Part shown: one piece after another, positions 1 through 41,374 of the stretch
How the letters are laid out: every line of letters begins with the position of its first letter
Position numbering within the stretch: position 1 is the first letter of the stretch
Virus record (IMG/VR): IMGVR_UViG_3300032277_000015
Span: 1-41,459 of that record
Source of the DNA: a virus
Lineage: Duplodnaviria; Caudoviricetes
Strand: one strand, 5' to 3'
Length of the DNA stretch: 41,459 nucleotides
Program-made: the position numbers and the translations under genes
The notes under the pieces: model-generated
What the model saw: the letters and a program-made list of their open reading frames with translations, nothing else
The model's database searches: none
What the model was told of the DNA's origin: nothing

Positions 1-3000
1 GATATTCTTTACCTTTTTGTATTTTAATAAGCTCGTCAGTAAACACTCTTAGCTTAGCGTCTTTGTTTACAAAATCATTTAATTCTTTAATATCTCTTTT
101 AGATAAACCTGGTATATCCATACCTTGCTTAGTCCAAGCGGCAACGCGCACTGCGTGAGAGTAAGTAAATTTACCAATACCAGTTTCTTTACTTAAAGTC
201 TTAGGTAGTGTTTTTAGTTTTGTTTTTAAAGCTACAAAATCATTTGCAGCAGATATCTTAGCTTGCGTAACTGCAGACTCAGCTCTATTGTAAGTATCGA
301 GCAAGTTTGTTTTTAAGAAAGCCATTTGAGCGTCTCCTTTTTTACCTTTACCTATCATTTTATATAGTAAACCTGTAAAGTCTTCAGCAGATGGTGGAAT
401 AAGAAAAGCATATTTACCTTTGCTTGCACCAACTGTTTTAGCTCTAGCTGCAGAATACTTTTTATAAGTTTCAATACCAGATGAATCCTCGATCATATCG
501 TTTACAATAGTATCAAAGGTTTGTCTTTTACTAGCTTTTGCTAATTGAACTTTAGACTTAACATCTATTTGACTAAGTACATTTTTAACCGCTTTAACGT
601 TTCCTGTATGATCATCTGCAAAATAAAAGTCGTTATAACCTTCAGCTGCTTTACCCATAATCCACCCAGCTTTAGCCTGTGGAGTTCCATCACCTAAACC
701 AGTTATGTTAGCAAGTGGAATATCTAATCCCATACTAGCTAAAAATTCTTTAATTGGTCCAGCTGCATCTGCAGGTCTTGCCGTTAAAACAAATACATCT
801 TTAGTTCCACGTTTGTCCGCTATGATTTTAGCTACATCCAATAGTGGTCCTTTACTTCCTTGCATTACTTTGCTGAACTCAGAGAAATCCCATTGAGCTC
901 CTTCAGCTTCCATATTAGCTGCTTCTTTAGCAAATGTAGCAGCATCTATTTTACCAGTAGTTCCATCAGGCATTGTATACAATACGTTACTTTTAGTTCT
1001 AGCCAATGTATCATCAAAATCAAATACTCTAATCTTCTTGACAGGTTGATCTAGTTTTCTAGCAAGTTCCAAAGACTTATCAGTTTTTTCTAAAGCATTT
1101 ATAGCTGTTTTAACACTAATAGGTCTGTTGTATTTTATAGCATCAGGTATGATTTTACTATCACGTTTTGAAGCCATAACTTTACCAGGAACTAGCTCTG
1201 ATTTTACTTTAACCTCTTCTTTGTATTCTTTTATAGACTTAACATCGTCAGCTTCTAATTCTACTAAACCATCACTTAAAGCTTCAAGAGGAGTTATTTG
1301 TTTTTTAGTTTTTATGTCATAGAAAAATACACCTTGCTCTGATAAATCAGAAACCATCTCTCTATATCTAGTTACCATTGGGTTATCTGTAGACTTGTAA
1401 TCTATACCCATCTTAGACTGTAGCTTTAAATTTCTAAGCATATCGTCCATTTGCTCTGTTATTAAAGCAGAGTCAAAAGTTTCTAATTCATTTAAAAACT
1501 CTTGTTTAGCTTTAGCATCCCCAGTTCTTGCGTAAGCGTAAGCAGCCACAGCTACTCTGTTTGCTGGTTTAGTATGCTCAAAAACACCTTTATCACCTCC
1601 AGGTTTTGTTAAGCCTAAATCTTCAAGCTCTTTAAAGCTAAACATTTTACCATCAACGTCTGTTAATACATATCTAGTTCCAGAAGCACGCTTACCTATA
1701 GCCGCCATATCAGCGAATAGTTGAGTAATTAAAAATCTTTTAGACGCAGGATCAACTTGTAATTCACTTATAATATTTACAAGATCTATAAGCTCTTTTT
1801 TAGTTTTGTTACCCTGTTCATAAAGCTCCTCAATAAATTCAAACTTTTGTTTTTGCGTTTTTTTATTAAAAACACCTTTAGGATTTGTCCACCAATTTTT
1901 TTGATACGTATCTGCTCTCAAAGGTATAGCTGGACCGTCAGGCGCTTCAGATAAAAAATTTTCCATTAAATCAGGCACGCCGGTCATTATAGCGCCTCTA
2001 GATTTACGAGTTCCTTTATAGTCTCTTTTTATTTCACCAATATTTTCTTTTTCTAAAACAAAAGAATTAGGTTGTGTTCCTATCAAAAAACCTCCAATAT
2101 TAGCTGGCTTAGCAAATGGTCCAAAAAACATACTTTTTAATTGCTGCTTAGTATAGCCCTTTTTTATCATTTCATCAGCAAGAACTTTGAAGGCAGTTCT
2201 AAGTTTGTTTAAACCTTCTAAACTAAACTCGTCAGCTCTGTAAACCTTATCACCGACTACTAAGTCAACGGTGTTGTAATCATAACCCTTGGTTAGATCT
2301 GAAGCTAAGCTCTCATCTATAATATTCTTTATTTCTTTAAAGTTTTTATCTGAAAACCTTTTAATAGCAACTTCTTCTCGCTGCATGCTAAACACATTAG
2401 ATACTTCTTTAATAACCTGTTTTATAGCTGGTGTGTCTAAACCCTCTACAGGATTTTCTTTAAAGTATTCGGTAGCTGCGCTTTTCCAAGGTTGCTTAAT
2501 ACTTTCGTCTTTTAACTTAGCTTCTAGTATATCGTTAAAACCTTTAGAGCTAGTAGCTTTCAAAAACTCATCTACCAAACCTGGTTTTATATTTGCTTCT
2601 GCTAAAAGTCTTTTACTAGCCATAGCTTTATTCTTGCCTGCTGCAACATCTTGCTTAACTTCTAAGCTTAAATCTGTGTCAGATCTTACAATTTCATTTG
2701 TAACTAACTTACCGTATAAACTAGCGATACCTTTTAACGCCTGAGCTTGTGGTGATCTAGCGTCAAATCCTTTAGCTTTCTTACCTTCAACAATTCCAAA
2801 CGCTTCTAAGAAATCAGCTTTACTAATTCCTTTGTTTAATTTAAACGGAGCAAGTCCAGCGCCTTTACCTAATCTAGCTTGTTTAGTATAAAAAGCATTA
2901 AGTAGGCTTTTTGGCACGCCAGTAGACGTACCTAAGAGCTTCTCTGTTGCAGCTTCTACAACTGCCCCTTCTGGTAATATCTTTAATAATTTATCTGCGT

Positions 3001-6000
3001 TCTTATTGACAAATTGCTGAATAGCTGTAGCATCACCTTTTGATAGATTAGCTGTTGGACTAGTTAATTTTTTAACTTTTTCTATACCAATTTCAGCTGC
3101 AATAATTTCAGGAGCTAAGTCACCAAGTTTTTTAAATGTTAGATTTTTAGGATCGATGCCTTTAATCTTCTCTTGTACTTGCTCTTTAATTTTAGTTACA
3201 GCTTCGTTTGAAATAAACGAGCTTGGTTTTATTTTTCTAGTAACAGGTTTTGTAGGTACTTCAACGTCTTGCTCTGTAGCTGTTTGGCGTTGCATTTTTT
3301 CAGTAACACCTTCTTGCGATTCAGATTGAATAATTTCATTATACCTAGGATCAGCTTCGTAAAACTCTTGTAATCTAGCATCAAACAAGCTTCTACCAGA
3401 AGCAGACTTTGCATTCAAATAACCCATGACACTATCGTTTCGATCTGGTGTCCATTTATCTATTAAGCCAACTAATCCTCTTTTTTCATCTAAAGCAAAA
3501 GTTCTAGCTATATCGTCAATAACGTCTTCGCTTAGGTTTATGTTACGCATACGTCTTTTAGCTTCATCAACTAAAGAATACGCGGCCATAATTGTAGCAT
3601 CTTTCTTTTTTTTAGGATCAAGAAGATCTAGCTTCATAGATTCAACTTCTTGATATACTCTCTTACTAGCTTTAGCCGAGCCATCTGAGTCTTTATTTTT
3701 AGTTTGTTTGTTTAACTCTAAGTCTATATTACTAACAAGATTTTTTTCTGCTGAAATAATCAATTCAGTTCCCGCCTCTAGGTCTTGACCTCCTGTCTTG
3801 TTTAACTGCTTAAGCTGCTTTAGCGTTATGTCTGGGAATTTTTCAGCTACATCTTCTATAGTTTCTCCCTCTTGAACTACATAAGTGTTATTGACTTCTA
3901 AATCATCATCAACAATCGCTCCCTTAGCTCCTTCTAATCTTACCTTGTTTTCAGCTGCTGACCAGCCTTTACCAGCGTCAGTAGACTTATTGTAAGCTAC
4001 TATAAAATCAAAAACATCTTTTCCAGTGTCAAATCTTAAATTTAAAGGTTGTTTGTTTGTTGGGTTTTTTAAGAAGTTCGATATTTTTTTGCCTATGTTT
4101 TTATACCAAGCCTCTTGCTTTGGGTTGTATTGAATATCGCCGCTAGAAAGGTATTCACTCATTAAAGGTATAACTTCAGACCAAGTGTCTTCTGCTGAAT
4201 ACTTTGAGTCATTAACGTATGACTGAAATTTGCTTAAAAACTTAGCTCCTCCACTTATTTCTTTGTTGTTAAGAAACTCTAGCATTAAAGATTTACCAAA
4301 CTTAATAGCAAGTTCTGGATTTCCTTTAAGAGCTTGCTCCCAAAAAGGATGCAATGTTTCATGTTTACCACTCGTATAAACGTTGTCTTCTGCAGACACT
4401 TGATCGTTTATCAATATAACTTTCTTTGTCACGCCATCTTCTTTAAATTCTAAAGATTGACCATAACCTACGTCTTCTATAACTTTTCCTCCTTTAGCTA
4501 TAATTTCTGCTTTTTTGACGTCTATTTTTTCTTGACTACCAAAAGGAAGAAACTCAACATCCATTTCAGCAGCTTTAGCTTTTGATCCTTTTCTGGAAAT
4601 AGATTTTTCAAGTTCTGGTTTTACTATTTCAGCCAGAGCCTCTCTTTTGTTTTCTATTTTTATATCAATATTTTCATGGAAAGCCTCGTCCATGTTTTTC
4701 TTTCTGTTTTGAAGATCTGCAATTTCTTGAAGTATTATAGCTGATTCAAGTTGAGTTTCTGAACTAACGCTGTTTGGTATGTTACTCATTTGGTTATTAA
4801 CAGCTCTAACGTCTGAGAGTACCTTAGAAACTTGCTCTTGAGTAACGTCTCCTTTAGCAACCATTTGATTCATTATTTCTTTAGAGCCATCTAAATCTAA
4901 ACTTATTTGGTAAAGGCTTTGTAATTGTTGCTCAGCTCTTCTAGGTCCAAGCCCTCTAAAGTTTAAATTAGCAAAAGCAGAACCTGAACCAAAAGAGGTC
5001 ATAGCTAAGTTTATAGAGTCTTGCATTGTCATGTCTTGCTGTAAGACATCTTTGCCAGCTATACTGTTTAAATAAGAATTTAAACCATAAACCTCAATAC
5101 CTTGTTGAGTGAACTCTTGAGCAACCTCAAAAACTCCATCAGCAACTACATTCACAGCTCCTTGCTTTGTAGGTTTCAATCTTTTTAGTGAATTGAATAT
5201 ATTAAATCCAGCTCCTGATACGCCTTTTTTGCTATAACCTTTTATAGCGTTTTTAATTAAACTACTAGAGCTAGCCGTTCCAAACAAGTTTTTATTTAAG
5301 TTATCTACATATTTACTATTTGGGGACAAAACGCTTGTTATAGAATATATAGCAGCTCCATATCTTGCAGCTAAATCTGACATTTCGTCAGCATCACTGG
5401 AATTTATACCAGCCTCTATAAATTGATCGTAAGTGTTTTGCTTTGTTCCAAAATAACCGCTAGCACCGTAGTAACCCATTGCTCCAACTGACGCTGCTGG
5501 TATTCTTATTGCAGAAGCTAGTTTTGTGATACCTAAAGCTTTAGAAGCACCGCCCGTTAAAGAAGTGCCTATTACATCATAAGCCATTCTACCTGAAACA
5601 CCCGCGAACTCTTGAAGAGATCCCATACCGCTAAAAGAAGATCCTGTTTTTTCACTTTCATCTAAAGATTTGTTTATTTTTTCAAACTCACCTTCACTAA
5701 CGGTACCTAGTATTACTTTATTTGTAACATCGTAAATAGCTCCAGCTTCGTCTTTTATATATGTAATACCATCTACTTCCGCTTCTTTTCCTGTTACAAA
5801 CTGATACCTAACATCTTCAGTCTCTCTAGATATGTCTCTTTCTTGCTTTACACTTCTTCCGTAAGTGTTGTCTATACCTAATAGGTCTTTAATACCAAAA
5901 GCTATTTCCTCAGCTCCACTCATATATCCTCTTGATGCTTTCTTAGCAGCTAAATACAAGTCTCCGTTTAAGTTTTCTTGTGATTTTATTTTGTTTATAG

Positions 6001-7423
6001 TTTGGTCTCTTTCTGCTTGATCTTGAATTTTAGATATAGATAACTCTGGAAAAGCTAAATCCTTATACTCTTTTATACTGTTGTAGTTATACAAGCCATA
6101 ACTATTTTTACCATATTTGTTGTCAAAGTAATTTTTAGCTTTTAATAAAGCCTTGTCTACGCTTTCTACATCTTTAAACTCTTCAGGGTTTTTCTTGATG
6201 TAACTAGAATATAGCTTTTTTAAATAATCAGCTTCTTGCTCTTCAATGTATAAGTCTAGATACCTTTCTTGTGATCTCTGTTGGTTAATAATAGAGTTTT
6301 TCAACTCACCCTGCAAAGACTTTGCTGTGTCAGGGTTTTCTTCAGAATCAATATTCTGTCTAATAGAGGTTTGCACTATACCATATCCTTGGTTTGGGTT
6401 CTCAATAGCATCTAAATAATCGTTACTATAACCTTTAGAATTCATGTAGCCTAGGAAATCGTCATAATCAAAGCCGTTGATGCTTTTTAATAAATCTGAC
6501 TTATAATCATAATTTACTTTGGAAATAGCAGCATCTTCCCTAAAATCCTCTTTATATTTACCAGTGTAAGGTTGATCTTTAAACTCAACATGTCGCTTAC
6601 TTTTGTTTAAATCTTCAGTAACTATATAGTCTGTTAGTTTTGAATCCAGGGTTCGTTTTTGGTGTTTTTTTATAGCTTTATCTTCAAAGCTGTCGTCAAC
6701 GAACTCGTCGTCTGGAGTAAATCTAGACTGAGCTCTATTTTTAAAAAATAACTCTTTTCTATTTAAAAATTCACCACTTTTTGTTTCGCCTTTAATGTCG
6801 TCTGGATTAAACTTAGAAACACTATTAACTTGGTCCTCAGTAACATTCAAGTAGTCACCTATGTTAAAATCTTTATAAACCTGTTCTTGTTTTTGTTTTT
6901 GTTTAAAAAACTTTTCTTTGTTAAAATCAGAATGACCAAATTCAGAGGCAATAGCATATTCCCCTGTCGAACCCATTTCATGTTGTTTCCATTCTTCAGA
7001 ACCTTTTGGCTTGTAGGAATAAACACTTTTTCCTTCGTCGTTTATATCGTATTTATAATCAAATTCATCGACAGATATAGATTCACCTGGTTGCGCTACA
7101 GCTGTGTATTTTGCGTATTTGATTTGTGACTCTCTAGCTTTATCCATTTCTTTATCAGTCATGCCAAAGCCAAAAAATCTAGGCTCTTGAGATGCTGATT
7201 CTCCACTTCCAGAACTTGAACTCTCGGATGCTACCGGTGTCGGTACTACAGCCGCATCTGTTTCCGCAGCACCGTTTGTCTTTACTTCTTCAATAGGAGT
7301 TTCAATTACTTCTTCAACTTCTTGCTGACCCCACTTGTTTTCTATTTTCCATTGTCTAATAAGCTCGGCTTTATTAGGGTTTGAATCTGGAATAGATGCT
7401 GTGTATTCTTGTAATTCGTTCAT
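1..7423 (-). CDS. Giant multidomain internal virion / DNA-ejection (polyvalent-type) protein, >=2474 aa, 3' end outside the window
   Basis: ATG at 7423-7421 after an A-rich leader (AAATTAAATG). Manually translated stretches in this frame are open (MNELQEYTASIPDSNPNK ... FTDELIKIQKGKEY at the left edge). The ORF track lists no stop-terminated ORF in this frame, consistent with run-off. Contains HETLH, LysM, sigma2-like, EHTKP and HAD motifs. Lies directly after the tail and ejection genes. Confidence 0.9.
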   Translation of the reverse strand, partial: MNELQEYTASIPDSNPNKAELIRQWKIENKWGQQEVEEVIETPIEEVKTNGAAETDAAVVPTPVASESSSSGSGESASQEPRFFGFGMTDKEMDKARESQIKYAKYTAVAQPGESISVDEFDYKYDINDEGKSVYSYKPKGSEEWKQHEMGSTGEYAIASEFGHSDFNKEKFFKQKQKQEQVYKDFNIGDYLNVTEDQVNSVSKFNPDDIKGETKSGEFLNRKELFFKNRAQSRFTPDDEFVDDSFEDKAIKKHQKRTLDSKLTDYIVTEDLNKSKRHVEFKDQPYTGKYKEDFREDAAISKVNYDYKSDLLKSINGFDYDDFLGYMNSKGYSNDYLDAIENPNQGYGIVQTSIRQNIDSEENPDTAKSLQGELKNSIINQQRSQERYLDLYIEEQEADYLKKLYSSYIKKNPEEFKDVESVDKALLKAKNYFDNKYGKNSYGLYNYNSIKEYKDLAFPELSISKIQDQAERDQTINKIKSQENLNGDLYLAAKKASRGYMSGAEEIAFGIKDLLGIDNTYGRSVKQERDISRETEDVRYQFVTGKEAEVDGITYIKDEAGAIYDVTNKVILGTVSEGEFEKINKSLDESEKTGSSFSGMGSLQEFAGVSGRMAYDVIGTSLTGGASKALGITKLASAIRIPAASVGAMGYYGASGYFGTKQNTYDQFIEAGINSSDADEMSDLAARYGAAIYSITSVLSPNSKYVDNLNKNLFGTASSSSLIKNAIKGYSKKGVSGAGFNIFNSLKRLKPTKQGAVNVVADGVFEVAQEFTQQGIEVYGLNSYLNSIAGKDVLQQDMTMQDSINLAMTSFGSGSAFANLNFRGLGPRRAEQQLQSLYQISLDLDGSKEIMNQMVAKGDVTQEQVSKVLSDVRAVNNQMSNIPNSVSSETQLESAIILQEIADLQNRKKNMDEAFHENIDIKIENKREALAEIVKPELEKSISRKGSKAKAAEMDVEFLPFGSQEKIDVKKAEIIAKGGKVIEDVGYGQSLEFKEDGVTKKVILINDQVSAEDNVYTSGKHETLHPFWEQALKGNPELAIKFGKSLMLEFLNNKEISGGAKFLSKFQSYVNDSKYSAEDTWSEVIPLMSEYLSSGDIQYNPKQEAWYKNIGKKISNFLKNPTNKQPLNLRFDTGKDVFDFIVAYNKSTDAGKGWSAAENKVRLEGAKGAIVDDDLEVNNTYVVQEGETIEDVAEKFPDITLKQLKQLNKTGGQDLEAGTELIISAEKNLVSNIDLELNKQTKNKDSDGSAKASKRVYQEVESMKLDLLDPKKKKDATIMAAYSLVDEAKRRMRNINLSEDVIDDIARTFALDEKRGLVGLIDKWTPDRNDSVMGYLNAKSASGRSLFDARLQEFYEADPRYNEIIQSESQEGVTEKMQRQTATEQDVEVPTKPVTRKIKPSSFISNEAVTKIKEQVQEKIKGIDPKNLTFKKLGDLAPEIIAAEIGIEKVKKLTSPTANLSKGDATAIQQFVNKNADKLLKILPEGAVVEAATEKLLGTSTGVPKSLLNAFYTKQARLGKGAGLAPFKLNKGISKADFLEAFGIVEGKKAKGFDARSPQAQALKGIASLYGKLVTNEIVRSDTDLSLEVKQDVAAGKNKAMASKRLLAEANIKPGLVDEFLKATSSKGFNDILEAKLKDESIKQPWKSAATEYFKENPVEGLDTPAIKQVIKEVSNVFSMQREEVAIKRFSDKNFKEIKNIIDESLASDLTKGYDYNTVDLVVGDKVYRADEFSLEGLNKLRTAFKVLADEMIKKGYTKQQLKSMFFGPFAKPANIGGFLIGTQPNSFVLEKENIGEIKRDYKGTRKSRGAIMTGVPDLMENFLSEAPDGPAIPLRADTYQKNWWTNPKGVFNKKTQKQKFEFIEELYEQGNKTKKELIDLVNIISELQVDPASKRFLITQLFADMAAIGKRASGTRYVLTDVDGKMFSFKELEDLGLTKPGGDKGVFEHTKPANRVAVAAYAYARTGDAKAKQEFLNELETFDSALITEQMDDMLRNLKLQSKMGIDYKSTDNPMVTRYREMVSDLSEQGVFFYDIKTKKQITPLEALSDGLVELEADDVKSIKEYKEEVKVKSELVPGKVMASKRDSKIIPDAIKYNRPISVKTAINALEKTDKSLELARKLDQPVKKIRVFDFDDTLARTKSNVLYTMPDGTTGKIDAATFAKEAANMEAEGAQWDFSEFSKVMQGSKGPLLDVAKIIADKRGTKDVFVLTARPADAAGPIKEFLASMGLDIPLANITGLGDGTPQAKAGWIMGKAAEGYNDFYFADDHTGNVKAVKNVLSQIDVKSKVQLAKASKRQTFDTIVNDMIEDSSGIETYKKYSAARAKTVGASKGKYAFLIPPSAEDFTGLLYKMIGKGKKGDAQMAFLKTNLLDTYNRAESAVTQAKISAANDFVALKTKLKTLPKTLSKETGIGKFTYSHAVRVAAWTKQGMDIPGLSKRDIKELNDFVNKDAKLRVFTDELIKIQKGKEY

Positions 7424-9221: not shown

Positions 9222-9670
9222 AGTTTTTCTTTTTTAGTATATTCTTCTATAGTTATAGAATACAATGATTCTTCTACTTGTTTCATGTCTTTGGTGTTCG
9301 TAGGGTTTTTGTGCACGTTTATAAAAACAGAGTCTTCTAAAGACCTTATAAGTCTTTTAGCGCCTTTTATTGATTTTTCATAGCAAGGTGCTATATGCTC
9401 CACGTCTTCCCCGTTTGTTGTAACTATTATCTTACCTTTCATTAAAAACCAAAAATGCTCTGTATGATGCATAGCGCTAACAATAACACAGTCTTTAGGC
9501 ATAGTTAGTTTACGCATATAAAGTTGATCTGAAAAGTTATTTTCTATTTTAAAAACATCATTATTAACTAAGTTTTTCCCATCTCCAAACACAGTGCTAT
9601 CGTTTTTATTAGCTATTAAAATGTTTTGAAAATCCTCTAGTCTTTTAGTGTAATTACTTAACTTATCCAT
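9209..9670 (-). CDS. Cupin-fold protein
   Basis: FSDQLYMRKLTMPKDCVIVSAMHHTEHFWFLMKGKIIV fits the cupin motif 1 pattern (HxxxH...GK plus beta strand). Confidence 0.6.
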   Translation of the reverse strand: MDKLSNYTKRLEDFQNILIANKNDSTVFGDGKNLVNNDVFKIENNFSDQLYMRKLTMPKDCVIVSAMHHTEHFWFLMKGKIIVTTNGEDVEHIAPCYEKSIKGAKRLIRSLEDSVFINVHKNPTNTKDMKQVEESLYSITIEEYTKKEKLWQE

Positions 9671-11382
9671 TAATAACCGTTATTAAAAATATAAGTTGTT
9701 CCTACTGAAAATAATTGCTTTTCACCACCTGGATCTGTTGTTGCATCTGTTGAAAAAGTAACATTAGCATAAAAACCTTTTACGCCTGATATTTGATCAC
9801 CAAAATTTATTTCTCTTTCTGAAACAACAGAATCGTTTATAAGATTTGCAACATATTTATTTTCTTTTCTATCAAATCCAGCTTGATATCTATTTAAAGG
9901 TGGATTAGAAATTCCATAAACAGCAAGATAATTAGCTTTAGCAACAGATAAAGATATGTTTAAATAATCATATTGCTGAACAACTATAGCTTGATTTACA
10001 GTTAATACATTTGTTGCAGTATCAAAACTAACTACAGTTGTTCCAGCTGGAACTCCATCACCAGTTACAACACCACCTACAGGTATTAAAAACACTGATC
10101 CATCGCTTTGACTTGGGTTTAGTGTTACAGTTGTTGGAGTTGCTTGCGCTAATGAAACTAATACATTTAAATTAGATACTACATATTCTCCTTCGTAATA
10201 GCTTTTAACTCCAGATGTATTATCAAAAGTTATAGAATTTGAAGCAGTTGTCCACGTAGCTCCTACAAGTAATTCACCTGTTCTATCGGAAACAAAAGAA
10301 TCCATTTCCCATCCACTACTACCTTCATAGCTGATAGCTTGAAAAGACTTAGAGTTTCCTGGGTTTTGATTAACAACAAAACTAATAGAACTATCAGATG
10401 TAATACCGTAAAAAGTACCTCTTGGTACAGAAGGTTCTCCAAGACTATTTCTTGAGTAGTGTTTAAATAAACCACCGTCTTTAGCGCTCCAAAAAACATT
10501 TCTTAAACTAAATATTTGTTCTGGCTTATAAGTAAAAAAGCTAACCCATCCAGATACTTTTTCATCAAAAGATAATGTAGTAGAGTTTCCGGTTCTTTGA
10601 GTTACTGGGTTTTGTTGCATTGAAACAACATATTGTGAATTATGTATATCATATCCTCCTACAACGTAACCATCAGCAGTACTATCATCTATAGAAATTA
10701 AAGTATCTCTGAAAAAATCTATCATACCATAACCCGATATTTCAGTTATTCCATCAGCGCTTAATCTAAGAATTACATTATTGTTTTTATCTGAAAAATA
10801 CTTTCTATAACCATAAACAGCAAAGCTTTCTGGATTTTTACTTATACCATATTCACCAGCGTAAGGCTGTATTGTTCCAATCACTAAGTTTGAATTAGTA
10901 ATTGAACCACCGCCTTCAGCTGAGTATATTGCATCTTTATCTATCAATGCTCTTGATACTTTGCTTTCTTGAAAAACAACAAGATTAGTATCTTCAGCAT
11001 ATAGCTTTTGTATAGAGCCATTAGAAGGATCTGCACTTTTTGTAATATCTTCAGCTACTGAAAATACATTAGAGTTATTAATACCTGTTCTAGAATTAAA
11101 TATACCTGAGTATATTAAAGAGTTTATTCTAAAAGAAGCTGATTCATCTTCTTCAACTAAATAAGCTTTAGCTCCATAGTCTACTGATGTGTTATTATAT
11201 CCACCTCTAATTCTAGCTTCTTCTATAGCCCAATTTTCATCATCAATAGTATTAGCAACTACTTTATAACCTCCTACATCTTCAGGTATACCAAAAGATC
11301 CATTCCATATAGGCTCGTCACTTTTATTGGTCTTCTTTAATATAAAAGAGTTAAAATATTTAACTTCTACTACTGCTCCCAT
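9670..11382 (-). CDS. Tail nozzle/stabilisation protein, C-terminal part (P22 gp10-like beta-propeller)
   Basis: Motifs LIYSGIFNSRTGINN, GSIQKLYAEDTNLVVFQESKVS, YAGEYGISKNPESFAVYG and GWVSFFTY recall crAss-like/Bacteroidota podovirus stabilisation proteins. Confidence 0.7.
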   Translation of the reverse strand: MGAVVEVKYFNSFILKKTNKSDEPIWNGSFGIPEDVGGYKVVANTIDDENWAIEEARIRGGYNNTSVDYGAKAYLVEEDESASFRINSLIYSGIFNSRTGINNSNVFSVAEDITKSADPSNGSIQKLYAEDTNLVVFQESKVSRALIDKDAIYSAEGGGSITNSNLVIGTIQPYAGEYGISKNPESFAVYGYRKYFSDKNNNVILRLSADGITEISGYGMIDFFRDTLISIDDSTADGYVVGGYDIHNSQYVVSMQQNPVTQRTGNSTTLSFDEKVSGWVSFFTYKPEQIFSLRNVFWSAKDGGLFKHYSRNSLGEPSVPRGTFYGITSDSSISFVVNQNPGNSKSFQAISYEGSSGWEMDSFVSDRTGELLVGATWTTASNSITFDNTSGVKSYYEGEYVVSNLNVLVSLAQATPTTVTLNPSQSDGSVFLIPVGGVVTGDGVPAGTTVVSFDTATNVLTVNQAIVVQQYDYLNISLSVAKANYLAVYGISNPPLNRYQAGFDRKENKYVANLINDSVVSEREINFGDQISGVKGFYANVTFSTDATTDPGGEKQLFSVGTTYIFNNGY

Positions 11383-26639: not shown

Positions 26640-26914
26640 TATTTAGATCTCCCTTCCGCAAAGCCTCTAAAAGATTTCTCTTCTTTAACCTCCACTGGTT
26701 TTTCATTTAACATATTCTCTTCAGCTTCTATTCTATTTAGTATTTCAAACGCATCAAATATAGCTAGCTTTTTTGTAGCTGCAGCGTTTTTTAATCTATC
26801 TGCTGATATATCATCATCTGAATCAACAATAGCTTCTTTAGCTACCTTGATTAACTCCTCCACTGCTCTCTGCCCAGCTTGGATTATATTCAACTTCGTT
26901 TCCTTGGTGTTCAT
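26639..26914 (-). CDS. Probable terminase small subunit
   Basis: 91-aa helical protein translationally coupled (TAAATG overlap) to terL; synteny. Confidence 0.5.
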   Translation of the reverse strand: MNTKETKLNIIQAGQRAVEELIKVAKEAIVDSDDDISADRLKNAAATKKLAIFDAFEILNRIEAEENMLNEKPVEVKEEKSFRGFAEGRSK

Positions 26915-27464
26915 ATTTAATTACGATATCATTAGATTTCATACAGTATAATCTTTTACCGTCAACTAAAAACTCCCATTCTCCATTCGGCGTATAACCA
27001 ACTAAGTCTCCTGAGTTGATTCCTAGCGCGTTTAAGGAGCTATTGTCATATTTTAATATACCAACAAGGCTTTTTTCTTTATCTAACGTTAAAGACTCTG
27101 TATCTTTTATAGGTGAAATAAAGCATCTGTCTCCAAAAGACTTCCACTTGTCACCTTTATTATATAAATAGATTTGATCTATAGCGCAAAAATGCAAATC
27201 ATCTTTAAACCAAGATCTACTTTTCTTTTTTTCTCCTTTCATGTCATAGAATATTCTAAACACGTTCTGATGTATAACAATTATATCACCAACATCAATA
27301 CCAGTATTAAAAGCTTTAGGTGTTTCTATTACTCTAGCTAATCTATTTACAAACTTAAAGTCTTCAATTTTTGTATTTAAAACTAGCTCTTTATCACCTA
27401 CTTTTATTTTGTTACTGTATTTTTCGCCTAATGGCTCTACTATAAAGTCGTATAAACTTTTCAA
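26838..27464 (-). CDS. Tandem GroES-like (co-chaperonin fold) protein
   Basis: C-half KSFGDRCFISP...GINSGDLVGY...EFLVDGKRLYCMKSNDIV follows the GroES pattern. N-half (MKSLYDFIVEP...GIDVGDIIV) looks like a second, more diverged copy. Confidence 0.65.
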   Translation of the reverse strand: MKSLYDFIVEPLGEKYSNKIKVGDKELVLNTKIEDFKFVNRLARVIETPKAFNTGIDVGDIIVIHQNVFRIFYDMKGEKKKSRSWFKDDLHFCAIDQIYLYNKGDKWKSFGDRCFISPIKDTESLTLDKEKSLVGILKYDNSSLNALGINSGDLVGYTPNGEWEFLVDGKRLYCMKSNDIVIKYEHQGNEVEYNPSWAESSGGVNQGS

Positions 27465-31042: not shown

Positions 31043-31495
31043 TTATTTATTACTTATTGATTTATATTTCTCTGCGCCACGTGATCCAAAATAAGCCACA
31101 TATACAGTTGTTGTTAATGTTTTTAATAGATTTATCCACTCTTGCTCTACAGTAAAATCTATATAGCCATGACTATCAACCCATATAAAAGCTATAGTCA
31201 TTATTGTTAGAAATATTAAACTCATTGGTCTAGTGTTTTTACTAAGCCATGAATCTGAAGCCATGTCGCTTTCCCAACGCTTTGATACTTCTTGAGCTTC
31301 AATTATATCTTGCTCTATTAATTTTAAAGCTGTTTCTTTGTCAAGTGGAGGTAAAGATTCATCTTTATTGATTAAATTCTTTACAACACCTAATAAACCC
31401 TTGTCTGGCAACACATCTCCTATTGAATCTAATACTCCAGATTTACCAAGTAGAAACTGACCGACTTTAGTGTCTTTAAATTTTTTTTTAGGCAT
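31043..31495 (-). CDS. Holin (GTA 3TM-holin-like)
   Basis: RWESDMASDSWLSKNTRP, hydrophobic helices and YFGSRGAEK resemble the 3TM holin family signature. Confidence 0.7.
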   Translation of the reverse strand: MPKKKFKDTKVGQFLLGKSGVLDSIGDVLPDKGLLGVVKNLINKDESLPPLDKETALKLIEQDIIEAQEVSKRWESDMASDSWLSKNTRPMSLIFLTIMTIAFIWVDSHGYIDFTVEQEWINLLKTLTTTVYVAYFGSRGAEKYKSISNK

Positions 31496-31796
31496 TCTTA
31501 TAAGCCTCGTCTTCCCAAGGCAGGTTTTTTGCTCCTTCTTTCATTTTAGATCTTGGGTACGTTTTCCCTTTCCAGTATACGTTTTTGTCATCGTAATCTA
31601 GATCACCACGCTTCATTTGGTCTATATGAACCATTTCGTGGTCTATAACATCTTGAGTCTTTGAAGAATCTACCTCTTTATTTATAATAATTGTGCCGTT
31701 GTTATTAGCTTTACCCATAACACCTTCTTCCATATCCACGTGGTATATTGGAGTATTGTTGCAATTGTATGGAGGATTAGAAAGTTTAAAAGCCAT
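31488..31796 (-). CDS. Small zincin-like metallopeptidase
   Basis: GTIIIN strand, HEMVH (HExxH) and downstream PWEDEA. Confidence 0.65.
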   Translation of the reverse strand: MAFKLSNPPYNCNNTPIYHVDMEEGVMGKANNNGTIIINKEVDSSKTQDVIDHEMVHIDQMKRGDLDYDDKNVYWKGKTYPRSKMKEGAKNLPWEDEAYKNA

Positions 31797-34444: not shown

Positions 34445-34891
34445 TTATCTGTCTTTATCTTTGTTTACGTTTTTAATAGAAGTTATAAGAACTTTGTCTG
34501 TATACGTCTTACCCTTCATAATACTGTTTCTGTGGTTACTCACAGGTAAATCATCTTTGCCTAGTATAATTCTATACATATGCTTAATAAGATGCTTACA
34601 CTTAAAAGAAGTTTTATATATATGATACTTCTGAGTTGTTCTATTTCTATGTCTCCACACAACTATCCAACCTTCTTTAAGTAACCGATTCCAGCGGCGG
34701 TTATCCCAACTATAGGAATAACTACCAGCTTCGAAATCTTTTTTTGTAAACATATCCATGCAGTCTAAGTAAATTAATAACTCCAGATCAGCATCGTTAA
34801 GGTTGTTGTTTCTGCAAGCCCATTTACGTATTATACGATAATGTTTAAACAGATTCATATTTTTTATATCATCTGCGTCTAGCCTTTTCAT
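34445..34891 (-). CDS. Winged helix-turn-helix (MarR-like) protein
   Basis: LNDADLELLIYL...FTKKDF...RRWNRLLKEGWIVV...IYKTSFK matches the wHTH helix/wing layout. Confidence 0.55.
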   Translation of the reverse strand: MKRLDADDIKNMNLFKHYRIIRKWACRNNNLNDADLELLIYLDCMDMFTKKDFEAGSYSYSWDNRRWNRLLKEGWIVVWRHRNRTTQKYHIYKTSFKCKHLIKHMYRIILGKDDLPVSNHRNSIMKGKTYTDKVLITSIKNVNKDKDR

Positions 34892-35151
34892 AAAACAACA
34901 ACAACATCTTGCGCTTTAATAACGTGATATGTTTTTTTGTCTATCTCTATTTTGTGCCCAGCGTGTCGATCAAAGAAGATTTTATCACCTTCTTTCAATC
35001 CTTCGACTTGTTCACCAGCAGATAATATATCAGCTTCTGTGTAACGTATGTCTTCACGTTGGTTCTCTGCAAGAAGTAAACCACCTTTTGTTTTAGTGGT
35101 TCCTTCTTTTATTTTATTTATTATTAAATTTCTACCTATCGCTTTCATCAA
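34888..35151 (-). CDS. groES: Co-chaperonin GroES
   Basis: Mobile loop TKTKGGLLL, GLKEGDKIFF, YHVIKAQDVV; 87 aa. Confidence 0.9.
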   Translation of the reverse strand: MMKAIGRNLIINKIKEGTTKTKGGLLLAENQREDIRYTEADILSAGEQVEGLKEGDKIFFDRHAGHKIEIDKKTYHVIKAQDVVVVL

Positions 35152-36685
35152 TTCTTAAATTATTGATTACACAATCAGTTGATAATATAGTTGTCGCTAC
35201 TGAAGCTGCGTTCTGAAGAGCGCTCTTGGTAACTAGTAGAGGATCAATAATACCTGAGTTAATCATATTTACCATTTTTCCTGTAACCACATTTAAACCT
35301 CTTCCTTTAGCTTTGGGCAGTTCTACGTCTGTTATTCCAGCGTTTTCTAGTATTGTTTTAAACGGTGCTTTAATTGCTTCTAAAAGCAGCTTTTCACCAT
35401 CTGACCTTGGTACTATACTTTTTGCAGCGTTTAACAGCGCTATACCACCTCCAGGAACGATACCTTCTTTAATAGCAGCTTTTGTAGCGCAGACAGCGTC
35501 TTCGACTCTATCTGTTTTTTCTTTTAATTCAATATCAGAATTAGCACCTACTTTTACAATTGCTATTTTAGCAGCAAGCATTGCTAATCTTTTTTCAAGT
35601 TTAATTACTTTGTGAGCTGGGTTATCTAGTGACAATTGCCTCTTAAGCTCATCTATAATATCTAACACTTCTTGTGAAGCTTCTCCAAATTGAAGTATAG
35701 TTTCTTCGTGAGTTGTAACGCTTTTAAGACATGTACCTAAATGCTCTACTTGGATTAAATCCATATCATCACCTAAGTCTTCGTTTATAATAGTAGCTCC
35801 AGTTAATAAAGCTAAATCATCTAAAACTTCTTTTTTGCTAATACCGTAAGTTGGTGCATTAATTACATTAACTTTAATATTGCCTTTGTTTTTATTCATA
35901 GCTAAAGCAGATAAAACACCTTGTTCTAAATCGCCGATAATCAGCAAAGGTTTATTGTTTTTTATTACATACTCTAGCACTGGTTGTATTTGTCTAATTG
36001 TATCAATAGGTGATTCAACTAACAATACTAATGCATTGTCAAGCTCGGCTGACTTGTTTTGCTTATTTGTTATAAAGTGAGAGTTTGTAAGACCTTTGTC
36101 ATATTGAACACCATCTATAACTTCGACTTCTGTTTTACCCTCTGCTGAGGTTTCCATCATTACAATCCCTGTATTGTCTACAGCTCTAAAAGCGTCAGCT
36201 ATAATGCTACCTAGCTTTGGATCGTTATTTGTAGATATAGTAGCAATTTGATCGATCATACTACCTTCTACAGGTACTGATGCAGATTCTAAGTAAGTGA
36301 TTACTTTTTCTACAGCTTTATTGATACCTTCTTTTAACTCTCTTGAGTTTGTCTTATCTGAAACTTTATAAGCTTCAGTTAATATAGCGTGAGCTAATAC
36401 AGTGGCCGTTGTTGTACCATCACCTGCTTCTCTTACTGTTTTTCTTGCTGCTTCTTTTAAAAGCGTAGCACCCATATTTTCTACTGGGTCTCGCAAGATT
36501 ATTGAATCTGCTACTGTAACACCATCTTTTGTAATGATTGGTTTTCCAGTATGATCCTCAAGCATCACACATTTTCCGCTAGCCCCAAGTGTGGAGCTAA
36601 CAGCTTTTGTGAGCTTTTCTATTCCTTTAAATACATTAACTCTAGCGTCTTCGCCGAAGTTAAGGTTTTTGACAATTGCGTCCAT
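35132..36685 (-). CDS. groEL: Chaperonin GroEL (Cpn60), phage-encoded
   Basis: ITKDGVTVA, AGDGTTTATVLA, RVEDAVCAT, GIVPGGG, GIIDP; 517 aa with no GGM tail. Confidence 0.97.
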   Translation of the reverse strand: MDAIVKNLNFGEDARVNVFKGIEKLTKAVSSTLGASGKCVMLEDHTGKPIITKDGVTVADSIILRDPVENMGATLLKEAARKTVREAGDGTTTATVLAHAILTEAYKVSDKTNSRELKEGINKAVEKVITYLESASVPVEGSMIDQIATISTNNDPKLGSIIADAFRAVDNTGIVMMETSAEGKTEVEVIDGVQYDKGLTNSHFITNKQNKSAELDNALVLLVESPIDTIRQIQPVLEYVIKNNKPLLIIGDLEQGVLSALAMNKNKGNIKVNVINAPTYGISKKEVLDDLALLTGATIINEDLGDDMDLIQVEHLGTCLKSVTTHEETILQFGEASQEVLDIIDELKRQLSLDNPAHKVIKLEKRLAMLAAKIAIVKVGANSDIELKEKTDRVEDAVCATKAAIKEGIVPGGGIALLNAAKSIVPRSDGEKLLLEAIKAPFKTILENAGITDVELPKAKGRGLNVVTGKMVNMINSGIIDPLLVTKSALQNAASVATTILSTDCVINNLRIDESDR

Positions 36686-38177: not shown

Positions 38178-38218
38178 TACAAACTAAATACGAAGTATAT
38201 TGGATAATAATAATGTAA
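38178..38218 (+). promoter_or_regulatory. Repeated early promoter-like motif, copy 1
   Basis: TACAAACTAAATACGA-AGTATAT-TGGATAATAATAATGTAA; 19 nt before ATG 38238. Confidence 0.75.
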
Positions 38219-38237
38219 GTAACAAACAATAATAACT

Positions 38238-38375
38238 ATGAAACGAATTAAATACATACAGTCAATCGAATTATTTCTAATAAAAAACCCAGAAGTAATT
38301 GTGCAAGATGTAATGCCAGAATGTATACTCGATGAACTGTATTACTTTCAAAGATGTCAATACAAACTGTTGTAA
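38238..38375 (+). CDS. 45-aa early protein (not in ORF track)
   Basis: AATAACTATG leader; MKRIKYIQSIELFLIKNPEVIVQDVMPECILDELYYFQRCQYKLL*. Confidence 0.6.
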   Translation: MKRIKYIQSIELFLIKNPEVIVQDVMPECILDELYYFQRCQYKLL

Positions 38376-38378
38376 AAG

Positions 38379-38426
38379 TGTGACAATAGCCCCTTACTAT
38401 ACTTAGCTTAATACCCTAATGTCACA
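38379..38426. repeat. TGTGACA inverted-repeat element, copy C
   Basis: TGTGACAATAGCC-CCTTACTATACTTAGCTTAATA-CCCTAATGTCACA. Confidence 0.8.
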
Positions 38427-38448
38427 GTTTTTAATAACAAATAAATAT

Positions 38449-38489
38449 TACAAACTAAATACGAGTTATATTGGATAATATAAATGTAA
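38449..38489 (+). promoter_or_regulatory. Repeated early promoter-like motif, copy 2
   Basis: TACAAACTAAATACGA-GTTATAT-TGGATAATATAAATGTAA; 31 nt before ATG 38521. Confidence 0.75.
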
Positions 38490-38520
38490 CTAAATAATAA
38501 TAACAATTAAAATTAAAACT

Positions 38521-38685
38521 ATGTTAAATAACTATCAATATAAAACTTACTTTAAAATACAATATTGTCATAATACAAATACTTATAAATTTACAATATT
38601 AAATCAAAGTAATGATGAAATACTATACAATAATAATTTCAATAATATAAAAGAAATAAATAAAATTATTCAACAATATAAATAA
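38521..38685 (+). CDS. 54-aa N/K/Y-rich early protein (not in ORF track)
   Basis: MLNNYQYKTYFKIQYCHNTNTYKFTILNQSNDEILYNNNFNNIKEINKIIQQYK*; fills the space between promoter copies 2 and 3. Confidence 0.55.
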   Translation: MLNNYQYKTYFKIQYCHNTNTYKFTILNQSNDEILYNNNFNNIKEINKIIQQYK

Positions 38686-38686
38686 T

Positions 38687-38727
38687 TACAAACTAAATAC
38701 GATACGTATTGGATAATAATAATGTAA
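38687..38727 (+). promoter_or_regulatory. Repeated early promoter-like motif, copy 3
   Basis: TACAAACTAAATACGA-TACGTAT-TGGATAATAATAATGTAA; 33 nt before ATG 38761. Confidence 0.75.
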
Positions 38728-38760
38728 CTAATAAATAATAATAACTTAAATATAATAACT

Positions 38761-38988
38761 ATGCAAAATTTACAATCAAAAAGATTTGTGGTAAGAAAAT
38801 CACTCATCGGCAAAAATCAAATCATCGAAGTCACTTTTAAAAATGGCAAATCATTCACTTACAATCACGATATTGTATATGAATTAATGAAAGACAAGTT
38901 AAATTCTATGAATTGCTTCGAAAAGTATAAATCTTATACATCTTCAACTTCAGTTCCTGTAGTTCTTCGTGACAAAGTAGTAATATAA
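38761..38988 (+). CDS. 75-aa early protein
   Basis: ORF track; ATAACTATG leader. Confidence 0.75.
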   Translation: MQNLQSKRFVVRKSLIGKNQIIEVTFKNGKSFTYNHDIVYELMKDKLNSMNCFEKYKSYTSSTSVPVVLRDKVVI

Positions 38989-39080
38989 ACTACTTGTCAT
39001 GACAAACTGTCACATTGCGAGTAATACCTCGACTATAAATAAAACAAATAAATAATTATACACCTATAAAAATAACTTAT

Positions 39081-39179
39081 ATGAGAAAATTCTTTCACAC
39101 TATTGTATTCAAAATCAGTAACTTTAAAGTATCTGACTATGTAGAAATTGGTTCCGCTCCAAATGAAACTAAGTGGTAA
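39081..39179 (+). CDS. 32-aa peptide (not in ORF track)
   Basis: A-rich leader; MRKFFHTIVFKISNFKVSDYVEIGSAPNETKW*. Confidence 0.45.
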   Translation: MRKFFHTIVFKISNFKVSDYVEIGSAPNETKW

Positions 39180-39236
39180 ATCAAAATGGTGACTATCCGA
39201 ACCATGAAGTGGGCTTTCAAACTGGATAGAAAATAA

Positions 39237-39312
39237 AGACATAACGGTTTCACTCTGCATTTTGACTACGTGAGCTCTACTTTGTGAGGTGGTTCGATTC
39301 CACTAATGTCTA
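39237..39312 (+). ncRNA. tRNA-like element (acceptor stem and T-arm intact; D and anticodon arms non-canonical)
   Basis: AGACAT pairs with ATGTCT; T-arm GGTGG-TTCGATT-CCACT sits directly 5' of the acceptor 3' strand; 76 nt. Confidence 0.5.
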
Positions 39313-39351
39313 CAAACAAAATACGATTATCTTTGGATAATATAAATGTAA
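39311..39351 (+). promoter_or_regulatory. Repeated early promoter-like motif, copy 4
   Basis: TACAAACAAAATACGA-TTATCTT-TGGATAATATAAATGTAA; 26 nt before ATG 39378. Confidence 0.75.
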
Positions 39352-39377
39352 TTAATAACTAATAAAAATAAATAACT

Positions 39378-39497
39378 ATGTGTACTAAATCTTATACTCT
39401 ACTAAAAATCTCGTGGAATCTTTTCGATACTGACTTTGATAAATTAAATGACCAACAAAAATCTAAAGTAATCGATATCTACTACGATTTCTACTAA
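39378..39497 (+). CDS. 39-aa early protein (not in ORF track)
   Basis: AATAACTATG leader; MCTKSYTLLKISWNLFDTDFDKLNDQQKSKVIDIYYDFY*. Confidence 0.6.
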   Translation: MCTKSYTLLKISWNLFDTDFDKLNDQQKSKVIDIYYDFY

Positions 39498-39508
39498 ACT
39501 AAATAACT

Positions 39509-39721
39509 ATGCGAATAATTAAACACTTTAACCCACACTTCCCAGAGCGTGAAACTTACAAATGTACTATACGATACACTACTAAGTTCGGTACGCTAGA
39601 TGAAGTAAATCAGTGGCGAGATGACCAACTAAAAAACGAAGATTATTACAAGTCGCTTGAAGAATCAAATACTAAAGCGGCAGGTGTATTCTACCAAACA
39701 TTAACTTATAAAGGCGATTAA
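39509..39721 (+). CDS. 70-aa early protein
   Basis: ORF track; AATAACTATG leader. Confidence 0.7.
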   Translation: MRIIKHFNPHFPERETYKCTIRYTTKFGTLDEVNQWRDDQLKNEDYYKSLEESNTKAAGVFYQTLTYKGD

Positions 39722-39722
39722 T

Positions 39723-39917
39723 ATGAATAAAAATTTAAAAAACGTAGTATTTACTACAATGATAGGACTATGCACTTTTCAAATAGGTAAAATAGTAAAT
39801 GAAAATAAAATTAAAGAAATAACAGAATCTTATGTTTTACGCACAGAATCAGGTGAAATGCTTGGTTACAATATAGCGATTCTTGACGATGAAAGACTTT
39901 TCACTTATGAAGATTAA
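39723..39917 (+). CDS. 64-aa early protein with hydrophobic N-terminal segment
   Basis: ORF track; VVFTTMIGLCTFQIG. Confidence 0.6.
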   Translation: MNKNLKNVVFTTMIGLCTFQIGKIVNENKIKEITESYVLRTESGEMLGYNIAILDDERLFTYED

Positions 39918-40041
39918 GAAAAATAAGCGTAAATTTAGTCACTATAAGATTAAATTAACAGAAATTGAAGCGATCGAGCGCGAATGGACTATGAGATATA
40001 ACTCTGAAATACCAAAGTGGCAACAAGAAATGTACACTTAA
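39907..40041 (+). CDS. 44-aa basic early protein (not in ORF track)
   Basis: MKIKKNKRKFSHYKIKLTEIEAIEREWTMRYNSEIPKWQQEMYT*; its stop abuts promoter copy 5. Confidence 0.55.
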   Translation: MKIKKNKRKFSHYKIKLTEIEAIEREWTMRYNSEIPKWQQEMYT

Positions 40042-40082
40042 TACAAACAAAATACGATTATCTTTGGATAATAATAATGTAA
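40042..40082 (+). promoter_or_regulatory. Repeated early promoter-like motif, copy 5
   Basis: TACAAACAAAATACGA-TTATCTT-TGGATAATAATAATGTAA; 17 nt before ATG 40100. Confidence 0.75.
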
Positions 40083-40099
40083 CAAATAATTAATATACT

Positions 40100-40300
40100 A
40101 TGCAACAAATTAAATTTATCAACTCAACAACTATTAAGTTAAACAATGTAACTTACAAAGGTTATCCTGTTGGCGAGTTACCAAAACGCTTCGCGTTTAT
40201 CTATGACGAAGACAAAGATCAAGAAGGTATCACTGAGTGGTTTAACTTCAAAGGCTTAACTTATGTCGAGTATAACCCTTCAATCTGGTCTTATGTCTAG
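40100..40300 (+). CDS. 66-aa early protein
   Basis: ORF track. Confidence 0.7.
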   Translation: MQQIKFINSTTIKLNNVTYKGYPVGELPKRFAFIYDEDKDQEGITEWFNFKGLTYVEYNPSIWSYV

Positions 40301-40526
40301 TCCTAAAAACATGAAAGAATTATGCCTCTATGTAAAACAGGCAAGAAAAAATCGTGCGCGAGGGCATAGACTCAAGCACTCACATGAGGTGTGTAGCGGA
40401 TTGACTGACAACGAGTGGAATGCCGTTGTTACAAGGCAGAAAACATCGTTCGCCAAAGGCAAGTCGTTCGCTTACACTGCTCGGTGGAATGACTACAAAG
40501 TAAACTATAAAACAAACAAACTATGA
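40293..40526 (+). CDS. Basic early protein (~77 aa)
   Basis: ORF track 40263..40526; likely start at the ATG overlapping the upstream stop (40293). Confidence 0.6.
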   Translation: MSSPKNMKELCLYVKQARKNRARGHRLKHSHEVCSGLTDNEWNAVVTRQKTSFAKGKSFAYTARWNDYKVNYKTNKL

Positions 40527-40810
40527 AACTAATAGAAGTAAACAACAATGGAACATCTACGTTCTTATTAAATGACGGGCGTGAAATAAAGTCTTATCAA
40601 TCAGGTTATATAAGAGTTAATAACTTTTACCACGATAGACTGTATCAAATAAACAAAAGAATTGAAGTTAGAGACGAATACTGGACAGGTTATTGGCACG
40701 GTAAAGGCTATACTGATAGAGTTATAAGCAGTTACAAGCGTATATTAATTCCAAACGAAATAGATCGACTAGAATATATTATTAACTGGGTAAAGAAAAA
40801 TGTAAAATGA
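40523..40810 (+). CDS. 95-aa early protein
   Basis: ORF track; ATGA coupling. Confidence 0.7.
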   Translation: MKLIEVNNNGTSTFLLNDGREIKSYQSGYIRVNNFYHDRLYQINKRIEVRDEYWTGYWHGKGYTDRVISSYKRILIPNEIDRLEYIINWVKKNVK

Positions 40811-40941
40811 GAAATATAAAACTTAACGACTCAGAGTGTATGTTTATATACTACACATTAAGAAAATACGCCAATCAAACAGAAAATTTAGATGACGATG
40901 ACAAAGAAGACATACACGAAGTAGCAAATAAATTCAAATAA
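40807..40941 (+). CDS. 44-aa acidic early protein (not in ORF track)
   Basis: ATGA-coupled; MRNIKLNDSECMFIYYTLRKYANQTENLDDDDKEDIHEVANKFK*. Confidence 0.6.
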   Translation: MRNIKLNDSECMFIYYTLRKYANQTENLDDDDKEDIHEVANKFK

Positions 40942-40942
40942 T

Positions 40943-41143
40943 ATGACAGAAAAAATAAAAGACTTTGTAGAACACGAGTTAAAAATGTTAGATAAAGGTA
41001 TCGTAGCTACGCCTACAGAAGATTATCTTGAAAACTTTTCAAAAGCTAACAACGGAAGTAATGACTTCTTACTAATGCAAATGGCTAAAAACTTAGGCTA
41101 TAAAATAGCCTTATTAAATATGAAAGATAGATTTTATGAGTAA
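40943..41143 (+). CDS. 66-aa early protein
   Basis: ORF track. Confidence 0.7.
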   Translation: MTEKIKDFVEHELKMLDKGIVATPTEDYLENFSKANNGSNDFLLMQMAKNLGYKIALLNMKDRFYE

Positions 41144-41363: not shown

Positions 41364-41374
41364 TATATATGTAA
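41334..41374 (+). promoter_or_regulatory. Repeated early promoter-like motif, copy 6
   Basis: TACAAACAAAATACGA-TTATCTC-TGGATAATATATATGTAA; 19 nt before ATG 41394. Confidence 0.75.

Follow-up and report, generated by a model that had tools for sequence, protein, structure and literature searches.

The stretch of viral DNA analysed here (the window; 41,459 nucleotides, IMG/VR record IMGVR_UViG_3300032277_000015) is a 41-kb piece of an uncultured podovirus-like phage that encodes terminase, portal, capsid, tail, GroES and GroEL proteins. The final gene of its late, structural operon is a giant open reading frame of at least 2474 amino acids (aa). An initial annotation of the window, made from the letters alone, had described in this protein an HETLH protease motif flanked by a VILIN strand and a WSEVIPLMSE helix, together with five copies of the tetrapeptide ASKR, and had proposed that the protease cuts the protein at four of these copies. 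Each of these elements, and the length of the reading frame, proved to be as described. The features of the gene are listed below, with A to D denoting the four motif copies at module borders and with motif counts referring to border windows in homologues.

2..7423, minus strand: giant open reading frame, open at the window edge
4589..7423, minus strand: N-terminal variable part, aa 1-945, without motif peak and without family match
3899..4588, minus strand: zincin-like metallopeptidase domain, aa ~946-1175 (AlphaFold; Pfam Peptidase_M78 in relatives)
4406-4420, minus strand: VILIN strand, aa 1002-1006, upstream of HETLH
4385..4387, minus strand: Asp1013, 8 residues before HExxH, the best protease-type marker of a basic last motif residue
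4349..4363, minus strand: HETLH zinc-binding motif, aa 1021-1025 (H1021, E1022, H1025), from the sequence
4154-4183, minus strand: WSEVIPLMSE helix, aa 1081-1090, carrying the distal Glu
4175..4177, minus strand: Glu1083, predicted third zinc ligand, invariant in 129/129 aligned rows
3755..3883, minus strand: LysM domain, aa 1181-1223, a lineage-specific insert (Pfam E 4.5e-8)
3659..3673, minus strand: site A, KASKR, aa 1251-1255; motif in 48/145 windows vs 8.3 by shuffling
2624..3658, minus strand: module 2, aa 1256-1600; helical sigma-region-2-like domain and a conserved domain without family assignment
2609..2623, minus strand: site B, MASKR, aa 1601-1605; motif in 44/95 windows vs 4.3 by shuffling
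1178..2608, minus strand: module 3, a hypervariable enzyme-like cassette with conserved E1949-H1950-x-x-P and a downstream Arg
1736..1750, minus strand: internal PASKR, aa 1892-1896, inside a folded module; equivalent in 1/198 proteins (itself)
1163..1177, minus strand: site C, MASKR, aa 2083-2087; motif in 68/139 windows vs 4.6 by shuffling
539..1162, minus strand: module 4, a helix and a T4 Pnkp 3'-phosphatase-type HAD phosphatase with the motif DFDDT; an optional module that some homologues lack
524..538, minus strand: site D, KASKR, aa 2296-2300; motif in 86/162 windows vs 8.8 by shuffling
2..523, minus strand: start of the C-terminal helical module, conserved, ~660-810 aa in complete homologues, without conserved motif peak

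The giant protein and its zincin-like domain

The full protein of close relatives is ~2800-3140 aa long, which places ~550-630 aa past the window edge. The gene shares its position with elemoE gp18 and phi38:1 gp101, and this position, together with the annotation of both syntenic genes as structural proteins, suggests that the giant protein is located in the virion. The gene is present in public marine, seawater and microbial-mat metagenome runs; contigs of independent runs are nearly identical over long parts of it, which rules out an assembly artefact. In RNA runs, contigs represent just small parts of the gene and carry no expression information. The whole protein gave no match by tblastn against GenBank phages, and NCBIfam yielded nothing significant.

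In the AlphaFold model, the block of aa 946-1095 has a predicted local distance difference test (pLDDT) score of 90-97 and presents strands, HExxH helix and distal Glu helix in the order typical of zincins. The strands end in VILIN, and HETLH lies on a helix (aa 1018-1031) with a pLDDT >90. Across the family, every one of the 129 aligned rows has the catalytic Glu, the second His and the distal Glu, although these rows were chosen for HExxH or EExxH and only the invariance of the distal Glu is an independent result. Pfam Peptidase_M78 matches 10 of the 129 members (best E 5.5e-7), while the window's own domain has no match to that model. The zincin-type site proposed initially is supported by the model and by the conservation of Glu1083. 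A VIA fold search with the protease model returned a list filled by small glyoxalase-like matches, and a predicted complex of the protease, zinc and a site C peptide of 34 residues (score 0.01, mark 0.32) was counted neither way.

The initial annotation had joined protease and LysM in one module. The LysM match itself stands, but the domain is private to the window's lineage, occurring in 4 of 245 proteins (a rough pattern). Elsewhere in the window, a stand-alone 102-aa protein (31488-31796, minus strand) carries HEMVH and has weak matches to the peptidase families M91, DUF6782 and M76, all below cut-off.

A motif repeated at module borders

ASKR starts at aa 1252, 1602, 1893, 2084 and 2297 of the giant reading frame, five copies where composition predicts 0.054. 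In shuffled sequences, five copies of any one 4-mer arose once in 1000 global shuffles and never in 1000 local ones, and the motif is absent from every other minus-strand gene of the window. The copy preceded by Pro, which had been set apart at the outset as lying inside a module, is indeed within a folded module; with itself as the only equivalent among 198 proteins, it was ruled out as a conserved site and is probably due to chance.

Homologues were collected by scans using the C-terminal 387 aa and more distant members as queries. A first set held 166 non-redundant long proteins out of 224 loci and a later set 79 more out of 219 loci, for 245 non-redundant homologues in total. MAFFT alignment was run in fast mode. 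Most of the homologues are 2100-3500 aa long and share a common order: variable N-terminus, protease, module 2, variable cassette, optional HAD and conserved C-terminal module. Each viral-contig scan gave 561 to 587 matching stretches, and metagenomes hold an estimated ~2300 pattern-bearing stretches. The long proteins whose start is intact and which include the C-terminal module number 222. Of these, 184 carry HExxH, 13 EExxH and 4 HExxxH; 17 of the remaining 21 still match the protease profile, which brings the total with a protease-like domain to 218. In homologues L149 and L150, QEVGH replaces HExxH and the downstream part has no strict motif, a single event consistent with joint decay. 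Near-identical C-terminal halves are paired with very different proteases in close relatives; as judged from the sequences, protease domains are exchanged between lineages.

Family-wide, the motif reads [K/M/R]-[F/A/E/S/R/Q/Y]-S-[K/R/Q/N]-z. In agreement with the initial annotation, an equivalent motif occurs at the same four borders in homologues (counts listed above), at an enrichment of ~ten-fold over shuffles of the same windows, with both the border windows and the motif pattern chosen post hoc from the alignment. The motif rate is 0.0088 per residue inside these windows versus 0.00042 outside, ~20 times denser, and the family has no motif peak upstream of the protease or within the C-terminal module. 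Extra cassettes bring an extra motif copy (L006, L133), and several HAD-less proteins retain two copies ~30 aa apart. No strict match in any window was found in 26 of 208 proteins, several of which have a shifted or altered form.

Varied synonymous codons at the four sites had been read initially as a sign of conservation at the protein level. The codons are in fact little varied in the window gene, where three of the four sites read GCTAGTAARAGA, but the conclusion is borne out by a family-wide codon test. For residues common to two sites of the same gene, the codon is also identical in 385 of 739 cases, compared with 405 expected from codon usage. Identical tetrapeptides share DNA at 0.539 within a genome and 0.544 between genomes, and the motif Ser is encoded by both AGY and TCN. 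Because codons are not homogenised within genomes, the motif is not a DNA repeat, and sequence comparison places the selection on the protein. Cassette shuffling through DNA micro-homology was rejected by the same within- versus between-genome comparison. In contigs of two other runs, 570 bases of the variable cassette (1727-2296) are replaced by 552 other bases, a polymorphism inside the cassette whose ends lie away from the K/M-ASKR sites.

Co-variation of the motif with the protease type

The relationship between motif and protease is new relative to the initial annotation. The class of the last motif residue agrees between sites of one protein in 67/76, 81/90, 47/58 and 53/58 comparisons, where about half would be expected. 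This class also co-varies with the type of the embedded protease. The top rank in 965 column tests fell to the position 8 residues before HExxH (Asp-8; Asp1013 in the window protein). In the first set, the last residue of site D, which lies 1,280 aa downstream of the protease, is basic in 24 of 27 proteins with Asp at this position versus 4 of 65 without it. The rule was fixed before the later scans; in the later set of 79 proteins, which are relatives of the first and not a fully independent sample, the last residue is basic in 22 of 27 proteins with Asp versus 2 of 30 without.

For a tree-based test we used the 134 of 245 proteins having the protease, the HAD, the site D motif and enough C-terminal sequence, and compared motif class with both a protease tree and a tree of the site D flanks. 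Motif class requires 24 changes on the tree of the flanks (39.7 on average after shuffling), against 8 on that of the protease. A mean of 14.2 of 18 independent pairs agree and 0 oppose (median p 1e-4), and an IQ-TREE analysis of 58 close rows gave 9 of 9 agreeing pairs. Each of the 23 non-motif positions around site D is fitted by the flank tree at least as well as by the protease tree; motif positions 0, 1 and 4, by contrast, agree better with the protease tree. In tree-free counts between proteins with flanks at least 80% identical, whose pairs are not independent, 214 of 227 pairs with unlike protease classes also have unlike motif classes, and 289 of 315 pairs with a shared protease class share the motif class.

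Changes of protease type illustrate the pattern. In L008 and L014, nested in the Asp clade, Arg replaces Asp and all four sites read SK[L/I]. In other protease clades, the motif ends in T with the AEVG type and in G with 6 of 10 EExxH rows. With just four switches on the protease tree and two supported pairs, Asp-8 is a clade marker and a weakly tested candidate determinant. The form of the prime-side pockets in zincins depends on residues just ahead of the HExxH helix. Because a five-residue patch tracks a domain 1,280 residues off while both of its flanks do not, direct recognition of the motif by the protease domain would best explain these data.

Predicted cargo, related systems and interpretation

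The module labels of the initial annotation fared unequally. The HAD label stands, since module 4 carries the DxDxT motif and its fold is closest to T4 Pnkp 3'-phosphatase (the VIA fold search of the long model covered the HAD part only). For the sigma2-like label the matches are weak: Sigma70_r2 is found in 4 of 91 members (best E 6.1e-5) and not in the window protein, and the module 2 profile reaches the sigma structure 8b3z at E 0.039. The EHxxP motif and downstream Arg of module 3 are what we take to resemble a His-Me finger, a label that was not confirmed: Pfam, PDB-sequence, Atlas and homologue searches gave no family for this cassette, and no HNH-type family was found among 95 members.

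Some homologues add to these modules. A P-loop kinase lies within the HAD module of several (L064:9431-9883, L383, L020 and others; AAA_33 E 3e-16 in L064), making a Pnkp-like kinase-phosphatase cassette. An optional cassette of 160-175 aa with weak DUF6934 similarity follows site B in L006:8348-8833, L133:7988-8512, L018 and L024, and in L006 and L133 it is flanked on both sides by motif copies. On the plus strand of the window, a bipartite element, TACAAACWAAATACGA-N7-TGGATAAT, occurs six times without mismatch within 38178-41364 (0 in 100 shuffles); each copy is promoter-like and lies upstream of small plus-strand open reading frames. The element occurs in at least 146 viral-contig stretches, and all 5 of 5 such contigs tested encode the giant-protein family; it is a candidate target of the sigma-like module.

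The terminase is 63% identical to that of MW202828 and 44% identical to those of Flavobacterium Elemoviruses; its remaining matches are Cellulophaga, Tenacibaculum and Maribacter phages. Because these relatives infect Flavobacterium, Cellulophaga, Tenacibaculum and Maribacter, the host probably belongs to the Bacteroidota. A genome scan returned 15 short contigs binned with many unrelated taxa, and the host is therefore not readable from that scan. The phage encodes GroEL (phrog_5725; 34888-36685, minus strand), and a gene for a GroES-like protein (phrog_13932; 26838-27464, minus strand) precedes that for the terminase, both as in Elemovirus and phi38:1.

We group the giant protein with the polyvalent proteins of phages. 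Iyer et al. 2017 (PMC5512222) proposed, in their passages on these proteins, that the metallopeptidases release fused domains autoproteolytically, in the head or after injection. Like the phage-type proteins described there, ours is very large and multidomain, combines HExxH and a distal Glu with unrelated enzyme-like domains, and comes from a late operon; unrelated catalytic domains surround its metallopeptidase, and it is encoded after terminase, portal, capsid and tail genes. It differs in giving no Pfam LPD match (nor do 15 homologues); in the Atlas, a weak neighbour of its C-terminal part carries LPD38 (score 0.93, 138 shared features). As for a cleavage site, the passages of Iyer et al. 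(PMC5512222) on these proteins name no target motif; in the main text, the words 'linker' and 'sigma' are absent, and 'cleavage site' is confined to the title of a reference.

Other giant or protease-bearing phage proteins share part of this organisation. The crAss-like phage phi14:2 carries gp65-gp66-gp67, cargo that is fused in some phages into a polyprotein presumed cleaved, according to the sections of the preprint that treat it (bioRxiv 10.1101/2020.03.07.982082); these sections name no cleavage site. That phage too is a Bacteroidota podovirus whose cargo has a zincin-like domain, and a tail-region protein of the window (9670-11382, minus strand) has the C-terminal domain of a crAss muzzle (PF25729, E 1.9e-7). 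In contrast to the phi14:2 cargo, the window protein has no detected RNA polymerase domain and carries the sigma-like module, variable cassette and HAD instead. The virion RNA polymerase (vRNAP) of coliphage N4 is likewise described as a giant ejection protein with an internal HExxH domain (PMC13434306), but differs in carrying an RNA polymerase and, as stated in PMC5512222, in being packaged unprocessed.

Elemovirus gp18 (YP_010109083.1, NC_055854.1), a 3694-aa structural protein, has the same gene position and a homologous zincin (E 2.8e-12 against the family profile; BFVD probability 1.0 but E 0.039), and differs in its other downstream modules and in lacking an xSK motif. In elemoE gp18 (L225), R-x-Q-[A/K] occurs three times after the zincin (aa 1683, 2079, 2302; 0.78 expected), and in MW202828 (L001) F-[S/Q]-L occurs three times (aa 1584, 2446, 3045); both patterns are post hoc and weak, and possibly are lineage-specific equivalents of the motif. 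Neither phi38:1 gp101 nor phi13:2 gp127 has an HExxH or the motif. IrrE/ImmA-type peptidases (Peptidase_M78), which cut one substrate at a defined site, are small zincins like the family domain and, unlike it, act in trans on repressors. IrrE cleaves DdrO, according to the abstract on that system. A literature search by title and abstract start, with subscription papers and supplements outside its coverage, returned no description of such a site code, and the main texts of Bayfield 2023 and Yutin 2021 have no match for protease, zincin or cleavage. What appears to be new is an identifiable, protease-matched site code; the self-cutting idea itself dates from 2017.

With a repeated border site matched to an embedded protease, as in polyproteins, the giant protein most likely works as a self-processing polyprotein, a reading to which we give a probability of about 0.74 on the sequence evidence; the interpretation in the initial annotation is supported in part. 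The giant protein of this marine podovirus-like phage would be packed in the virion and injected. The embedded zincin-like domain likely recognises and cuts the [K/M]-A-S-K-R tags at the four borders. Cutting would yield the sigma-like module, the enzyme-like cassette, the polynucleotide-phosphatase-type HAD and the C-terminal helical module as separate proteins. After a protease exchange, the downstream tags would be re-tuned to the new type, a basic last residue accompanying Asp at -8. As to timing, we favour cleavage after packaging, since earlier cutting would detach the cargo from the packaging-directing part; this argument is by analogy with N4 vRNAP, whose C-terminal region is needed for encapsidation.

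Several observations weigh against self-processing. Foldseek against the PDB gave nothing at E<=0.001 for either model, and there is no clear match to a solved zincin. L337 has a non-Asp protease yet ASKR at three sites, and L061, L287, L289 and L371 have an Asp protease yet FSKV at site D. The initial annotation had pictured the sites as disordered linkers between compact domains. AlphaFold (aa 1238-2420) does set them at module borders, with low confidence at B (pLDDT <50) and C (~54), but in or at the start of helices, and A and D are helical with a pLDDT of 70-86. Recombinant N4 vRNAP, despite its HExxH, was not degraded in the experiments described (PMC13434306). Cargo proteins are thought to unfold in part during ejection, as discussed in PMC10172136, and by analogy such unfolding could expose helical sites.

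The degradation result and the helical sites would also suit a zincin-like domain that binds the tags without cutting them, for example as a clamp keeping modules inactive in the head or ordering their passage through the tail. Binding would account equally well for the co-variation, EExxH variants retain motifs, and the N4 vRNAP paper devotes a section to autoinhibition through the C-terminal part (PMC13434306). We nevertheless consider binding alone unlikely, given the invariant catalytic residues (129/129, with only the distal Glu independent of row choice), the QEVGH proteins L149 and L150 without strict motif (one event), and the need for one domain to clamp four or five scattered sites, which is less simple than serial cutting. 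It is less probable still that another protease, from a phage gene or the host, cuts the tags while the zincin targets, for example, peptidoglycan or host proteins. Peptidoglycan digestion has been suggested for such domains in passages of two preprints (bioRxiv 2020.03.07.982082, 2026.04.10.717836), LysM adjoins the protease domain in the window protein, a small stand-alone HExxH gene is present at 31488-31796, and the N-terminal part may mark host range and so could co-vary with a host protease. However, of the two trees compared (embedded protease and site D flanks), the motif follows that of the embedded protease, and LysM is found in only ~4 of 245 proteins. The least probable account, largely refuted, makes the tags DNA micro-homologies for cassette shuffling or generic helix-start linkers without a recogniser. 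Cassettes between sites do vary, three of the four window sites are near-identical in codons and the sites lie at helix starts, but codon sharing is equal within and between genomes, Ser uses both codon families, the natural replacement at 1727-2296 ends elsewhere than the K/M-ASKR sites, and neither version explains how the tags track a domain 1,280 aa away.

In its fullest form, which we regard as an even bet, self-processing would mean that a widespread marine phage family injects a polyprotein whose own zincin cuts it according to a readable site code, that proteases are swapped and all downstream sites then re-evolve, and that Asp1013 sets the basic preference. Tailed phages would then have their own version of the polyprotein processing known from RNA viruses, one that frees a sigma-like transcription factor and RNA-repair-type enzymes at entry. 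With sites that can be named, a protease matched to them and swaps of specificity in nature, the family makes the self-cutting idea testable, and the tags delimit modules in otherwise unannotated 3000-residue proteins, making the injected cargo accessible piece by piece.
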